Of a stretch of DNA of 32,000 bases, positions 1,341-30,914 are shown piece after piece. The first letter of the stretch is position 1. Each line of letters starts with the position of its first letter. Both the position numbers and the translations under genes were made by a program. The notes under the pieces were generated by a model, which ran no database searches, was not told the DNA's origin, and saw nothing but the letters and a program-made list of their open reading frames with translations. Origin of the DNA: Halogeometricum borinquense DSM 11551 (GTDB lineage: Archaea > Halobacteriota > Halobacteria > Halobacteriales > Haloferacaceae); the NCBI RefSeq assembly GCF_000172995.2, contig NC_014729.1:2430001-2462000 (forward strand), written 5' to 3'.

Positions 1341-1365
1341 GACCGGGCGGGCGGAATCACGCCAC

Positions 1366-2670
1366 ATGCAGAACCGAACTTACACGGCAGACGCCGAACC
1401 CGGCGACAGCGTCACCGTCGCGGGGTGGGTTCACGAGGTCCGTGACCTCGGAGGCATCGCCTTTCTCATCCTGCGAGACAAGAGCGGCAAGATTCAGATC
1501 AAACTCGAAAAAGACGAGATGGACGAAGAGCTCGTCGAGACGGGTCTCGACGTGGCCCGCGAGAGCGTCGTCTCCGTCTCCGGCGACGTAAAGGAGGAGC
1601 CGCGCGCCCCGACGGGCGTCGAAGTCGTCCCCGAGGACATCGACGTGATGGCCGAGGCCGACACGCAACTGCCTCTCGACCCGTCCGGAAAGGTTGACGC
1701 GGAACTCTCGACGCGCCTCGACAACCGGACGCTCGACCTCCGCAAGGACGAGGTGAAGGCCGTCTTCGAGATCCGCGCAGAAATTCTCCGCTCGGTCCGC
1801 GACGCCTTCCGTGGCCTCAACGCGACGGAGATCAACACGCCGAAAATCGTCGCTACCGGTACCGAGGGCGGCACAGAGCTGTTCCCAATCACGTACTTCG
1901 GCCAAGAGGCGTTCATGAACCAGTCGCCCCAGCTGTTCAAACAGCTCATGGTCGGCTCGGGTCTCGAACGCGTCTTCGAGGTCGGTCCGATTTTCCGCGC
2001 CGAAGAACACAACACGCCGCGACACCTGAACGAGGCGACTTCCATCGACTTCGAGTCGGCGTTCTTCGACCACACGGAAGCGATGGACGCCTGCGAACAC
2101 GTCGTCAAGGCCGCCTACGAGGGCGTCGCCGAGAACTGTCAGCGCGAACTCGAAACGCTCGGTCTCGCAGAGGAGTTCGAGGTTCCCGAGGGCGAGTTCC
2201 CGCGTCTCACCTACGAGGAGGCCATCGAGCGAATCAACGCGACGGGCGAACTCGACGAGCAACTCGTCTGGGGCGACGACCTGCCCACGGAGGGCGAGCG
2301 CGCACTCGGTGAGGACGTTGGTGAACACTACTTCATCACCGACTGGCCGTCCGAGATCAAGCCGTTCTACATCAAGGACCACGACGACGACGAGACCCTC
2401 TCGACGGGCTTCGACATGATGCACCCGCGGATGGAACTCGTCTCCGGTGGGCAGCGTGAACACCGCTTCGAACACCTCGTCGCCGGCTTCGAACAGCAGG
2501 GTCTTGACCCCGATCAGTTCGAGTACTACACGAAGATGTTCAAATACGGCATGCCCCCGCACGCAGGCTGGGGTCTCGGTGGCGAGCGTCTCGTGATGAC
2601 GATGCTCGGTCTGGACAACATCCGCGAAGCGGTTCTGTTCCCACGAGATCGCCAGCGATTGAGCCCATAG
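1366..2670 (+). CDS. aspS: Aspartyl-tRNA synthetase, archaeal type (class IIb)
   Basis: 434 aa starting [44 protein letters not shown] (OB anticodon-binding fold). Class II motifs are present: [14 protein letters not shown], and GGQREH...[17 protein letters not shown]...[12 protein letters not shown] at the C-terminus. The track ORF starts at 1168, but its first 66 aa are Arg/Ser-rich junk overlapping the divergent promoter. Confidence 0.95.
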
Positions 2671-2717
2671 GGCGAAATCGTGGTCTCTTGGGAACAGGGA
2701 GCGGCTTTGCCGCGACC

Positions 2718-2930
2718 GTGTTCCCACGAGATCGCCAGCGTCTGAGTCCGTAGGACGAAGACGTGGCGAGCAAACGAGACGAGCGCATGCGAGTCTCGTC
2801 AGATCGCCAGCGACTCTCTCCGGAGAGTCGCTACCGGGAACGCGGGAGCCAGAAAAGCGAGCGAAGCGAGCTTTTCGCTGTTCCCGCGAGACAGACAGCG
2901 GTTGTCGCACGGCCGTATTTATTCCCGAGA
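2718..2930 (+). repeat. Array of displaced aspS 3'-terminal coding cassettes (2718-2753, 2802-2822, 2878-2907, possibly 2919-2930)
   Basis: TGTTCCCACGAGATCGCCAGCG (2636-2657, inside aspS) is repeated exactly at 2719-2740. Each cassette translates to (L/V)FPRDRQRLS(P), like the aspS C-terminus, but with different synonymous codons. See findings. Confidence 0.85.
2809..2832. other. Perfect 10-bp hairpin AGCGACTCTC-tccg-GAGAGTCGCT
   Basis: Read directly from the sequence. It overlaps cassette 3. Neighbouring hairpins are TGGGAACA...TGTTCCCA (2689-2726, with inner GCGGC-ttt-GCCGC), ACGAGAC...GTCTCGT (2774-2799), and GGGAAC...GTTCCC (2836-2886, with inner GAAAAGC...GCTTTTC). Confidence 0.8.
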
Positions 2931-3026
2931 GAAGAACGACGAGGAGAGACATCGAGCGTTCAAGGGAACCAAGCGCAGCGAAAGAACGATGATGCCGCCA
3001 TCAATAATGATAGGTGAGTAACAGCC

Positions 3027-3425
3027 ATGGATGACGACGTGGACGATGGGGACGGCGAGACAGCACTCCAGAAGGCCGTTGGCGGCGTCGTCATCGCGCT
3101 CGTCTTGCTCATCGCGTTCACACTCCTCGCCCTCGACGTCTCGTTCTTCTGGGTGGCGTTCCCCGTCGGATTTGGGGGCGTACTCCCCGCAGCTATTGGC
3201 ATAACGAAGTGGTACGAACAGCGTCAGAAACAGAACACGCACGCCGACAAGCCAAGCGAGACGGAGGAAGCACTAGAGACGCTTCGCCGTCGGTACGCGA
3301 CCGGTGAGATCGACGAAGCGGAGTTCGAACGCCGAGTCGAGCGACTACTCGGAACCGAGACGGTCGAAGACGCCGAATCCTACGTCAGTACACCAACCGA
3401 GCAAGAGCGGGAACTCGAACGGTGA
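3027..3425 (+). CDS. SHOCT-domain membrane protein
   Basis: 132 aa with an acidic N-terminus and two hydrophobic helices. The C-terminal LRRRYATGEIDEAEFERRVERLL matches the SHOCT short C-terminal domain pattern. Confidence 0.75.
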   Translation: MDDDVDDGDGETALQKAVGGVVIALVLLIAFTLLALDVSFFWVAFPVGFGGVLPAAIGITKWYEQRQKQNTHADKPSETEEALETLRRRYATGEIDEAEFERRVERLLGTETVEDAESYVSTPTEQERELER

Positions 3426-3506
3426 CAGACTGCATCTGACGAAGAAGAGTCTCGAACGCGTGTCGAAACCGTTCCGGACATAACAGTTGGAGTGCCAACT
3501 GCGAGC

Positions 3507-9391: not shown

Positions 9392-10296
9392 TCGGTGAGG
9401 AGGCTCCGAACGGCGCGAGCCACTGTCGGCGCGTCAGGGCCGAGGACGTAGGTGATGGCTTCGATTCCGTACGCGCCGGACTGGTAGAGAGCGAACGTGT
9501 CCGTCAGATCGTCACGGTCCGAGAGAGCCGCAACGATGGGGTCCGTCGGTGCGTCCGGGTCGAACTCGATAGCGTCGTACCCGGAATCCTCCAGTGACGC
9601 GATGATATCGGGGTCGTATCGGATGTTGACTGCACTGTGAACATCGCGGCCGGCCTCGCGCGCAGAGAGCAGAACCGAAGCGACGTGTTCGCTCACACCG
9701 AACTCGGGGTCGCTCGGAACCGTCGCCTGACCCTTCACATCGAAGATGCGGCCGGGGATGGCCGCGACATCCTCGATGCCGCTGGGTTCCGGAAGGCACT
9801 CCGCGAGGTTCGATCCGACGTTTGGGATGAGACCGGCGAACCCGCTGGCGTTCGTCAACGTTCGGAGTCCCCGGCGCACCGACGACCGGACGCGTTCTGC
9901 CGTCCGAAGCGTACTGTCCGGGTCGTGGACGCTGAGCGCGCCGTCGTACTCGGAGAGTTCGGGCATCTGCTGTTCGTGGAGCGTCGCAAGCAGGTCGCCT
10001 TCCTCGAATTGGCGGATGAGAACCTCCGCTTCCACGAGCGCCTGCACGGGCGTCATGTCACCTGTCGAGAGACCGTCCGCGACGCGCTCGACGAGTTCCT
10101 GCACTCGCTCGTCTTCGAGCAACGTCTCGTTTCGACTCACCTCTCCGTGAGCGTACTTCGAGACGGCTGACTGGCTAATACCGAGAGCGTCTGCGACTTC
10201 ACGTTGCGTGAACCCTCTGTCACGGAGTTCCTCGGCGAGCATCGAGCGAAACGTCGGGAGGAACTCCTCGACGACGATTTCCTCGATGAAACGCAT
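9388..10296 (-). CDS. HTH (XRE-type) domain fused to a ThiN domain: ThiR-type thiamine regulator or ThiN-type thiamine-phosphate synthase
   Basis: 302 aa. The N-terminal helix-turn-helix is FTQREVADALGISQSAVSKYAHGE. The C-terminal ~170 aa domain (GLIPNVGSNLAECL...IPGRIFDVKG...AVNIRYD...AYGIEAITYVLG) resembles ThiN. The gene lies 835 bp from thi4. Confidence 0.7.
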   Translation of the reverse strand: MRFIEEIVVEEFLPTFRSMLAEELRDRGFTQREVADALGISQSAVSKYAHGEVSRNETLLEDERVQELVERVADGLSTGDMTPVQALVEAEVLIRQFEEGDLLATLHEQQMPELSEYDGALSVHDPDSTLRTAERVRSSVRRGLRTLTNASGFAGLIPNVGSNLAECLPEPSGIEDVAAIPGRIFDVKGQATVPSDPEFGVSEHVASVLLSAREAGRDVHSAVNIRYDPDIIASLEDSGYDAIEFDPDAPTDPIVAALSDRDDLTDTFALYQSGAYGIEAITYVLGPDAPTVARAVRSLLTE

Positions 10297-29646: not shown

Positions 29647-30914
29647 TGCGACCACCGCCGTTCGGCGCGGGCGAGTTCAGTCGCCAGCGGTTCCTCGCCC
29701 CAATCGATGGCGCGAATACCCGACTGTCGGAGTCCGGCGAGGCGGTTCTGTCGTTCAATAGCCGCGAGGCGGTGCCCCGGCGTGTCGTCCGTTGTCGGGT
29801 CGGGGCTGACGACCGTGACCAAGTGCCCGTGTGCATCGAGACGCCGTGCGGCAACGGTGGCAAAGTCGTCCGCCAGCGGCGAGAAGAAAAGAACCTGTGC
29901 GTCTGACGGAAGCCGACGCCGGAGGCGACGGAGCGCGACGACGGGGAAGTACGAATCATCCGATGGCGTCGGCGCGAGGGCGGGATTCGCTGCGAACAGT
30001 TCACGAGCGCGAGCGCGATGGTCGCTGCCGGTTGTCGGTGCGAGCCAACACTCGTGCGGTGAGAGTGCCGCCACCCCCACACGGTCGCCGCTGTCGAGAA
30101 GCGACGAAAACGCCCTCGTCGCGGCATCGACGCTTCGTTCGACGGCGTTCTGTTCGCCCTCGTCGGTAGCGACGTACGCCTCCGAACGGGCGTCGATCAG
30201 GAGAACGACCGTTGCGGCGCGTTCTTCGCGGAACTCAAGCGTCGCCATCTCTCCCGTGCGAGCGCGGCGGTTCCAGTCGATACGGTTGAGTGGGTCGCCG
30301 CGACGGTACTCGCGGGTCGAATAGAACTCCAACCCGGCCCCGGCGACGTTCGTAGCGACTCGGCCGGTGTACTGCGTCGTCAAGCCTCGAAGCGGCAGAT
30401 CAGCGGTCGCTTCGAGCGACGGGGTACACCGGAGGACGGTCGTCTCGTCAGGAGAGATGTCCTCGCTTCGCTCCGTTTCCGCGCTCGGACTACGGACGAC
30501 GGCATGGAGCGGATCCCACGCGTGTTCGCCGCGGACAGCCTCCACGGAGTACGAGAACGTCGCCGCCTTTCCGGGGCGAAGCGCTGTTCCGATTCGGGCG
30601 GACCCGTCCGTCACCTCCAACGCTGGCGGGACGCCGTCGATCAGTCTGAGGTCCGTGAGCGGCGTCGCGCCGACGTTCCTAACGGTGACGGTCACGCGTA
30701 CGTCTTCCCCCGTATCCGGCGTCTGGTTGGAGAGTTCTCGCGTGATGTCGAGCGCCGGAGCGGGCGCATCAGCGAACCACGCGTAGGCGGTGTATGCAAC
30801 GCCGACCCCGGCGACGAGGAGGAGCGCCGGTTGCTGGAAAACGACGCCCGCGGCACCGGCGATGAGCGCGGCACCTTCGATTCCGGTCCAGCGGTGCGTA
30901 TCGAATCCGTTCAT
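29643..30914 (-). CDS. DUF58 family protein (vWA-like, MoxR-associated) with two N-terminal TM helices and an Ig-like domain
   Basis: 423 aa. The DUF58 signature is EFYSTREYRRGDPLNRIDWNRRARTGEMATLEFREERAATVVLLID. Upstream is a CARDB-like VRVTVTVRNVGATPLTDLRLID segment. Confidence 0.88.
   Translation of the reverse strand: MNGFDTHRWTGIEGAALIAGAAGVVFQQPALLLVAGVGVAYTAYAWFADAPAPALDITRELSNQTPDTGEDVRVTVTVRNVGATPLTDLRLIDGVPPALEVTDGSARIGTALRPGKAATFSYSVEAVRGEHAWDPLHAVVRSPSAETERSEDISPDETTVLRCTPSLEATADLPLRGLTTQYTGRVATNVAGAGLEFYSTREYRRGDPLNRIDWNRRARTGEMATLEFREERAATVVLLIDARSEAYVATDEGEQNAVERSVDAATRAFSSLLDSGDRVGVAALSPHECWLAPTTGSDHRARARELFAANPALAPTPSDDSYFPVVALRRLRRRLPSDAQVLFFSPLADDFATVAARRLDAHGHLVTVVSPDPTTDDTPGHRLAAIERQNRLAGLRQSGIRAIDWGEEPLATELARAERRWSQ

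Follow-up and report, generated by a model that had tools for sequence, protein, structure and literature searches.

The aspS gene of Halogeometricum borinquense DSM 11551, which encodes an archaeal-type aspartyl-tRNA synthetase (AspRS), is followed by a 356-nucleotide (nt) spacer in which the last codons of the gene recur several times in other synonymous versions. The spacer is rather likely to represent an ordered stack of superseded aspS 3' ends, generated first by local duplication of a unit and then by homology-anchored recombination of alleles with unequal numbers of units. The locus was analysed in a window of 32,000 nt (assembly GCF_000172995.2, contig NC_014729.1, positions 2,430,001 to 2,462,000), whose coordinates are counted from its first letter, and compared with other haloarchaeal loci, cited here by their numbers (such as L126). 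The set comprised 193 aspS loci from genomes and from 113 metagenome contigs, with flanks of 10 kb. Copies of the gene end, termed cassettes, were detected at the nucleotide level, allowing up to 9 mismatches to any resident allele. The gene and the cassettes of the window are as follows.

1366–2670, plus strand: aspS, archaeal-type aspartyl-tRNA synthetase, 434 amino acids (open reading frame (ORF); Pfam tRNA_anti-codon and tRNA-synt_2 on the identical protein)
2635–2670, plus strand: cassette 1, the resident, translated aspS terminus (11 codons and stop, CTGTTCCCACGAGATCGCCAGCGATTGAGCCCATAG)
2636–2657, plus strand: first copy of direct repeat D (TGTTCCCACGAGATCGCCAGCG), identical to 2719–2740
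2718–2753, plus strand: cassette 2, a displaced terminus, in strain L126 the working end of aspS (strain comparison)
2802–2825, plus strand: cassette 3, a partial displaced terminus, DRQRLSP (2802–2822), with the former stop codon TAG now GAG
2878–2907, plus strand: cassette 4, the oldest clear displaced terminus, with the Pro and stop codons lost
2919–2930, plus strand: possible fifth remnant (TTATTCCCGAGA), not confirmed (11–12-nt match)

The positions and sequences of the cassettes had been described in a first-pass annotation of the window and were borne out by re-reading and by an independent, peptide-blind nucleotide repeat search, which returned the same four tail copies at spacings of 83, 72 and 88 nt. 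The same search recovered the 22 nt shared by cassettes 1 and 2 (2636–2657 and 2719–2740) and the four synonymous changes that had been said to follow them; the likeness extends 13 nt beyond the stop codon. Compared with the resident copy, cassettes 2–4 contain 19 nucleotide differences in total and one amino-acid change. Chance retention of the peptide was assessed by placing the observed number of substitutions randomly in the resident cassette, which yielded P = 0.018 for cassette 2 (5 differences, 1 amino-acid change), P = 8.5e-5 for cassette 3 (6 differences, 0 amino-acid changes) and P = 5e-6 for cassette 4 (8 differences, 0 amino-acid changes). The peptide-preserving pattern reported initially is therefore significant by simulation, and the tail copies are real rather than chance matches. 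The cassettes had also been described as lying in different frames relative to aspS, which holds for cassettes 2 and 3 and the putative fifth (frame +2) but not for cassette 4, which lies 243 nt, or 81 codons, downstream and is in frame. The fifth remnant could not be confirmed, as its position reads TTATACCCGAGA in the L124 strain group and is not conserved there.

The AspRS of the window is identical to that of several H. borinquense assemblies and 94% identical to that of Halogeometricum pallidum, and the C-terminal peptide of the enzyme is unchanged in 79 of 80 species loci. Among assemblies with identical AspRS, three states were found at one site: no unit, unit X and unit Y. Strain L126 (AspRS 100% identical) lacks the first unit, and cassette 2 with its flank is joined directly to ...GAAGCGGTT and forms the working terminus; relative to this resident end, the window has 2 mismatches within cassette 2 and 1 over the 24 nt that follow. 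Unit X (83 nt) is present ahead of cassette 2 in the window and in L127 (GCA_000337855), whose spacer is identical to that of the window, and unit Y (period 85 nt) occupies the same position in L124, L125, L128 and L131. In the window and in L124, a 61-nt patch coding for R-L-S-P-stop is enclosed by identical repeats of 22 and 24 nt, respectively. The spacer parts of units X and Y are unrelated to each other and to that of the type-A module described below. L127 and L126 differ by 0.4%, evenly spread across 6 kb, and no cluster of foreign substitutions was found between them in aspS upstream of unit X; the difference therefore consists of a short patch and not of a long replaced allele. A separate strain-specific feature was noted upstream of the window region, where L124 and L128 (3754–8208 in both) carry a 1333-amino-acid MmeI-like restriction-modification gene and a small ORF between topA and pcrB; this defence islet near the aspS locus is absent from L125, L126 and L127. 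Within the window, a 531-amino-acid antisense ORF over aspS (1357–2952, minus strand) and an 84-amino-acid ORF over the array (2763–3017, plus strand) are artefacts of high GC content, the latter not being conserved because the array differs between strains.

Counterparts of the older cassettes were found at the resident ends of other genera. Cassette 3 is one base (TAG to GAG) off the resident terminus of Halobellus marinus and of Halosimplex species; termini at this distance occur in L009, L012, L018, L024 and L185, and 19 of the 24 nt beyond cassette 3 also match L009. For cassette 4, the nearest resident alleles of other loci are 3 mismatches away over 30 nt. With cassette 2 resident in L126 and cassette 3 close to the resident end in other genera, these comparisons support the central proposal of the first-pass annotation, namely that each cassette would once have served as a working aspS C-terminus and was later displaced.

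Similar arrays are widespread among haloarchaea. About half of 80 species-representative genomes, spanning Haloferacaceae, Haloarculaceae, Natrialbaceae and others, contain 1–3 extra tail copies located 66–170 nt beyond the aspS tail. In total, 171 displaced cassettes were detected in 112 of the 193 loci (93 full copies and 78 partial ones starting at the Asp codon), as against 1 match in a reverse-strand control on the same regions. About 42% of the loci are without a displaced cassette, and in some of these the next gene starts 5–16 nt past the aspS stop. The distance between successive cassettes is 30–250 nt with a mode of 70–90 nt, and the cassette-bearing units lie directly after aspS in 124 of 124 pattern matches. 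Relative to their own resident copy, full cassettes show 439 synonymous and 55 non-synonymous codon differences (11% non-synonymous) and partial ones 308 and 67 (18% non-synonymous), giving 747 versus 122 overall (86% synonymous). Only 26% of random single-base changes are synonymous, and the in-place decay of a local duplicate is expected, as calculated from this figure, to produce about 59% non-synonymous differences; the initial argument that such decay cannot explain the pattern is thus upheld across the 193 loci. Amino-acid damage per cassette climbs with its rank in the array (0.41, 0.93 and 1.33), which makes the stack a chronological one whose newest unit adjoins the gene.

Identical tandem units were observed in L010, L011, L018, L039 and L009 (where the first and third cassettes are the same). 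The type-A module precedes lineage-specific partial tails in at least 15 species, in which the Leu-Ser codon pair reads CTGTCG, CTGAGC, CTCTCT, CTCTCG or CTTTCG depending on the lineage; the module was therefore placed before each lineage's own tail. In Haloarcula japonica (L034, 11305–11480), a duplicated unit is broken by N, possibly a scaffolding artefact, and the unit count at this locus is unreliable.

Comparisons between close relatives place the boundaries of exchanged tracts at the cassettes. Loci L145 and L224 show no difference across at least 1300 nt of aspS and all of the first unit (100% identity). Directly behind TTCCCGCG of the displaced cassette, identity falls to 68–93% for about 230 nt, after which it recovers to 95–100%; the divergent tract runs into the 3' end of a convergent PIN-like gene. 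L151 and L180 differ at 8 positions, all synonymous, within 17 nt of a displaced cassette whose flanks are identical on both sides, and the neighbouring complementary arm fits the L151 version only. This pattern indicates that displaced cassettes are overwritten by alleles that evolved as working ends. Differences in unit number were also found, with three units in Natrialba L067 that are lacking in its close relative L060 and one unit in L233 that is lacking in L228. Six Haloarcula-type loci share at least 96% identity over the final 300 nt of aspS and yet carry four different tails and arrays. The module, its local duplication and the tract boundaries at the cassettes are thus directly visible, and the proposal that repeated allele recombination gave rise to the array stands in a modified form, based on the strain states and on these boundaries.

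The DNA between the cassettes is strongly structured. The sense strand of the 356-nt spacer folds at -193 kcal/mol (z = -9.4), compared with z = -6.6 for the antisense strand and z = -0.6 for an equally long stretch of aspS coding sequence. The sense fold exceeds the antisense fold in stability by 15.6 kcal/mol, which mildly favours a role at the RNA level. The following hairpins were assigned in the window.

2641–2683, plus strand: stop-codon-centred hairpin of cassette 1 with arms 2641–2653 and 2671–2683 (inverted repeat I8; hairpin class covaries across genera)
2658–2718, plus strand: strain-specific patch of unit X, 61 nt, absent from L126, with the new last 4 codons and stop, a tip hairpin and two D-complementary arms
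2684–2731, plus strand: second hairpin, with a D-complementary arm (2684–2698) and a tip hairpin (2699–2715), closed by the 5' end of cassette 2 (2716–2731) (inverted repeat I4; minimum-free-energy fold)
2739–2809, plus strand: type-A module, with the stop-centred hairpin of cassette 2 (2739–2763), the arm TGGCGAG (2764–2770) and an inner hairpin (2774–2799), closed by TCGCCA of cassette 3 (inverted repeat I3; fold)
2809–2832, plus strand: stop-centred hairpin of cassette 3 (AGCGACTCTC / GAGAGTCGCT; inverted repeat I13, 10/10 complementary)
2833–2877, plus strand: GGGAAC-containing arm and tip hairpin with loop GAGCGAAGCGAG, 5' of cassette 4 (fold)

Every unit shares one hairpin plan. A first hairpin is made up of the last codons, the stop and the next 10–25 nt, its loop containing or lying near the stop codon. 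It is followed by an arm that can pair with the 5' part of the cassette (for example GGGAAC...) and by a small tip hairpin, often with the loop GAGCGAAGCGAG or flanked by tandem G·A. A second hairpin is completed by the 5' end of the next cassette, which pairs with this arm and begins at the very point where complementarity does. The closing sequence is GTTCCC for full copies and GAYCGNCAGCG for partial copies after a type-A module. The hairpin class of 2833–2877, which lies between cassettes, is common to many other genomes, and its stems covary. At 195 related loci, aspS ends with TAG in 71% of cases, compared with 28% for other likely genes there; the aspS TAG (2668–2670 in the window) mostly stands in a CCGTAG context, in or adjoining the hairpin loop. 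Hairpins with the loop GAGCGAAGCGAG (a GCGAAGC mini-hairpin with tandem G·A) also occur in many haloarchaeal intergenic regions other than the one after aspS, for instance at position 30473 of the window (minus strand) and at about 20 sites in L001–L080.

When type-A modules of 14 species from at least 9 genera are aligned, 93.8% of the pair cells are canonical, compared with 26–47% when the partners are slid. Compensatory double changes were found in 10 of 22 pairs, and none of 500 shuffles reached the observed values; several of these pairs involve third positions of the Arg, Gln and Ser codons of aspS. Compensatory pairs thus occur across lineages, as is characteristic of a conserved cis-acting hairpin, here an undescribed one; a search of the region against Rfam 15 gave two noise matches (E = 0.8 and E = 2.8), far under the gathering scores. 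Over 189 distinct loci, a tail folds better with its own flank (-29.0 kcal/mol) than with a foreign one (-24.2 kcal/mol; P = 1e-11). Substitutions that follow base pairing rather than codons had been named in the first-pass annotation as an observation that would speak against its coding interpretation. Changes in the coding arm are synonymous and are balanced by matching changes in the non-coding arm; the substitutions therefore follow codons and base pairing both, not one instead of the other. Accordingly, the description of the spacer as a set of coding remnants is right in that the cassettes are real, but incomplete in that the spacer is strongly structured and not merely decayed coding sequence.

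The origin of the array may be described by the following mechanism. Briefly, in Halobacteria the last aspS codons and the stop codon, together with some 50 nt of 3' flank, constitute a structured module, which now and then duplicates locally, as the identical tandem units show, to yield an arrangement tail-E-tail, where E denotes the non-coding part between the tails. Since the tail peptide is invariant, the tail DNA (TTCCCGCGAGAYCGNCAGCG) is nearly invariant across genera, and it represents the last stretch of homology before the hypervariable intergenic region. Haloarchaea are polyploid and capable of mating. If the donor carried an extra module, its displaced cassette could pair with the working cassette of the recipient, and exchange could proceed through gene conversion, crossover or, after a break, synthesis-dependent strand annealing. 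The donor tail and its hairpins would then become the new working end, whereas the recipient tail, with its own synonymous codons, would be shifted one place downstream. Repeated events would stack heterologous tails, the newest beside the gene, and recombination between cassettes may also delete units (by the converse pairing) or overwrite displaced ones. The displaced copies would decay slowly, an integrase would be unnecessary, and the events should be nearly neutral, since the protein is never altered. The recombination model would explain why the differences are synonymous only, why the shared segment varies in length (8 to over 36 nt), why the newest unit is proximal, why the strains are polymorphic and why a recombinase is absent. 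It is also consistent with what is documented in haloarchaea, where aminoacyl-tRNA synthetase alleles are replaced and islands are swapped between core-gene anchors (PMC3436685, PMC11078007). Homeoallele replacement, deletion-coupled insertion and island swapping as described there share with the aspS array the recombination between diverged relatives, the core-gene anchors next to variable regions and the involvement of synthetase genes. They replace sequence, however, and leave no ordered stacks, whereas the aspS events add a unit, keep the old end and give rise to an ordered stack with synonymous-only differences.

Several observations weigh against the recombination model. The event that first sets a foreign tail before a native tail was not observed and is deduced from donors that already bear arrays. 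Anchors of 8–24 nt are short for canonical homologous recombination. The units have element-like traits, namely a regular size (mode 70–90 nt), a constant architecture and the TAG bias of 71% versus 28%. The search for donors of units X and Y yielded no more than moderately similar relatives; the closest to Y matches it in 56 of 61 nt, in the resident unit of the metagenome contig L144, and the closest to X is about 80% identical. Both copies of the 22–24-nt repeat are identical within a strain and yet one base off L126 (CCA versus CCG, GAC versus GAT), which requires an extra conversion step or an ancestral polymorphism. Finally, the flanks analysed were limited to 10 kb.

Among the alternatives, integration by dedicated enzymes was addressed by searches for integrases, mobile elements and free copies of the cassettes. 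No second cassette copy was found within 10 kb in 80 genomes, and none of the 193 loci contains a cassette beyond about 250 nt of the previous one. There were no orphan cassettes on 120 metagenome contigs, where all copies lie directly after aspS; eight apparent orphans were rejected, as they had aspS 100–240 nt upstream or adjoined a contig end. Two pattern scans of IMG/VR for a viral attachment site (attP), one with the full core and one with the partial cassette, gave only chance matches (43 and 2, without an RLSP* context or of the wrong GC content), and blastn against phage and plasmid collections gave no match. No integrase was found among the first downstream genes by ORF clustering, inspection by eye and Pfam, which assigned rhomboid, KH, ADH or GNAT domains or nothing to 10 first-neighbour representatives; bulk Pfam and PHROGs scans covered 99 cluster representatives of downstream ORFs and were evaluated for the 25 commonest families, so that a single integrase could escape them. 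The pantoate kinase gene is the ancestral neighbour of aspS, and the gap between the two (2671–3491 in the window) is a variable hotspot of 5–16 nt to over 4 kb that holds different genes in different genomes. These include a SHOCT membrane protein (3027–3425 in the window), a rhodopsin-like protein, a PIN-like/antitoxin-like pair, rhomboid, GNAT and ADH proteins and unknown acidic proteins.

It had been suggested in the first-pass annotation that integrase-bearing elements caused the array, in which case viruses, plasmids or islands would repeatedly have entered the aspS 3' end, each with a replacement terminus, and then mostly have been deleted. In form, the array does resemble the att-remnant or partial tRNA arrays left by integrative elements with tyrosine integrases (PMC8371274), in which the incoming DNA likewise brings a functional 3' end and pushes the old one downstream, the insert lies between direct repeats, and repeated events produce tandem remnants. 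At aspS, too, an identical core repeat of 22–24 nt flanks the insert, as at the att sites of tRNA-targeting elements, and the insert restores the 3' end of the gene. What defines att-remnant arrays is nevertheless lacking, since no integrase, attP, long element, distant second copy, orphan cassette or viral or plasmid copy was found in about 200 loci and the collections searched. Moreover, the aspS array involves a protein-coding gene, whereas archaeal integrases are reported mainly at tRNA genes, in a review that makes no mention of synthetase genes (PMC8371274). Its inserts are hairpins of about 60–90 nt, its repeat length varies from 8 to over 36 nt, and its tract boundaries indicate homologous recombination. 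With cassettes only 30–250 nt apart and with first downstream genes that are ordinary cellular ones or of unknown function, each element would have had to be deleted repeatedly and reproducibly to about 60 nt, and an origin by integrases is regarded as highly improbable. Equally hard to credit is purely local tandem duplication with divergence in situ. It is in line with the identical tandem units of L010, L011, L018 and L039, and copies related by local descent, as expected from replication slippage, were seen in some other genomes (L018, L039, L010) but not in the window. It predicts a non-synonymous share several times that observed, though, and leaves unexplained that the spacer parts of X, Y and the type-A module are unrelated and that cassette 2 is the working end of another strain. 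As a sole cause it was rejected on the basis of the strain states, the simulation and the codon-difference counts.

The units may instead be small non-autonomous mobile hairpins that resemble repetitive extragenic palindromic (REP) sequences or miniature inverted-repeat transposable elements (MITEs), are mobilised in trans, for instance by an IS200/IS605-like or REP-associated tyrosine transposase (RAYT)-like enzyme or by a recombinase, and home to the aspS tail with a replacement terminus. Their discrete size, the constant inverted arms around the tip hairpin and the presence of two different units at exactly one site within a species are in keeping with this view. The enrichment of TAG, often GTAG, at the aspS stop is suggestive only; in bacteria, GTAG-tagged REPs often provide the stop codon of the adjacent ORF (PMC3733652) and would be a possible analogue. 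REPs and bacterial interspersed mosaic elements (BIMEs) are also short hairpins at or after stop codons, sometimes clustered, strain-variable and probably transcribed in the 3' untranslated region (UTR), but they are dispersed in high copy number and lack a copy of the last codons of the target gene, whereas the aspS units are archaeal and specific to aspS. Dispersed copies, as known for REPs, BIMEs or MITEs, were not found in the 10-kb flanks and metagenome contigs, where only the small loop motif GAGCGAAGCGAG recurs in other intergenic regions. No unit is markedly better conserved between lineages than aspS, and only two unit pairs, both apparently within a genus, are at least 93% identical across lineages, which disfavours recent independent spread. 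The variable length of the duplicated target is unlike that left by a fixed staggered cut, and no transposase was identified, RAYT-like or other, in a search confined to the loci. Overall, mobile hairpins are considered an unlikely, though not negligible, source of the array. A selected multi-hairpin 3' UTR, acting as a terminator, mRNA stabiliser or regulatory RNA and retaining the cassettes only as hairpin arms, appears less likely still. The very stable fold with its sense-strand excess, the covariation of both type-A hairpins across at least 9 genera and the better folding with the own flank would all be expected of such a region, but structure alone cannot hold the peptide through codon-family switches (CGC to AGA, AGC to TCG). 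The many loci without a displaced cassette, including those whose next gene starts almost at the stop codon, the variation of unit number within species, the damage that displaced cassettes gather with rank and the lack of an Rfam family match also speak against it. A selected 3' UTR role thus probably explains a single module, but not the stack.

In form alone, the array may be compared with a clustered regularly interspaced short palindromic repeat (CRISPR) array, since repeats of about 30 nt alternate with spacers of about 50 nt and new units are added chronologically at the leader or gene end. The aspS repeats, however, vary at synonymous sites, their 'spacers' are conserved hairpins rather than protospacers, and there is no sign of Cas1-type integration; CRISPR-like adaptation was rejected because of the non-identical repeats and the varying length of the duplication. 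Further candidates that were dismissed are a diversity-generating retroelement (the peptide does not vary, and the changes show no specificity for adenine), UAG read-through (the extension is not conserved) and a bulge-helix-bulge intron (the motif was not seen).

A scan of all long ORFs of these loci for echoes of their C-termini returned aspS 66 times, and the only other recurrent gene was gatB. The same phenomenon was observed at gatB in 4 of 21 loci (L063, 1940–2200; L076, 1510–1780; L068, 3740–3990; L044, 1950–2200), in which the working C-terminal codons are followed by an element of about 120–150 nt and then by a displaced gatB tail. This tail is identical in 26–33 of 33 nt, with mostly synonymous differences, and L068 holds an identical 73-nt repeat. 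At the gatB sites the working and displaced tails are separated by a dispersed element of about 140 nt, a circumstance that would fit mobile hairpins. The dispersed element (GGCnTTTTTsGyCCAsrTTTTT..GAGCGG-hairpin-..GAAAAAGGTGG) was found in intergenic regions at unrelated loci of several genera, among them L004, L005 and L007 near 9850–9955, just upstream of the aspS promoter, as well as L018 (3985), L019 (2620) and L024 (4717) (minus strand). Its hairpin is surrounded by T-runs on both strands, and the element may be either a bidirectional terminator or a MITE-like repeat. Speculatively, and with a low probability, the units at aspS and apparently at gatB may be selfish, recombinase-less "gene-end hitchhiker" micro-elements of about 60–150 nt, which would home via a synonymous copy of the end of an essential gene and leave the old end behind as a datable fossil.

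Gene flow and recombination have long been debated as a force in haloarchaea. If the array was built by duplication and recombination as proposed, it would register, in order, how the end of an essential single-copy gene was replaced time after time, and would do so in more than half of the sampled haloarchaea. Recombination and gene flow could then be traced at one short locus amenable to amplification by the polymerase chain reaction, which may also serve as a fine-scale strain marker. Displaced gene-end remnants are usually taken as the footprints of integrases, but such remnants seem to arise without an integrase where an invariant peptide provides a universal homology anchor next to a variable region. 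No description of aspS-end cassettes was found in the searchable literature, and the hairpin module centred on the stop codon is likewise conserved and undescribed. The synonymous codon choice of aspS co-evolves with the 3' UTR, so that 'silent' sites are constrained, which points to a role at the 3' end of the mRNA. The case of gatB suggests that the process is not limited to aspS.

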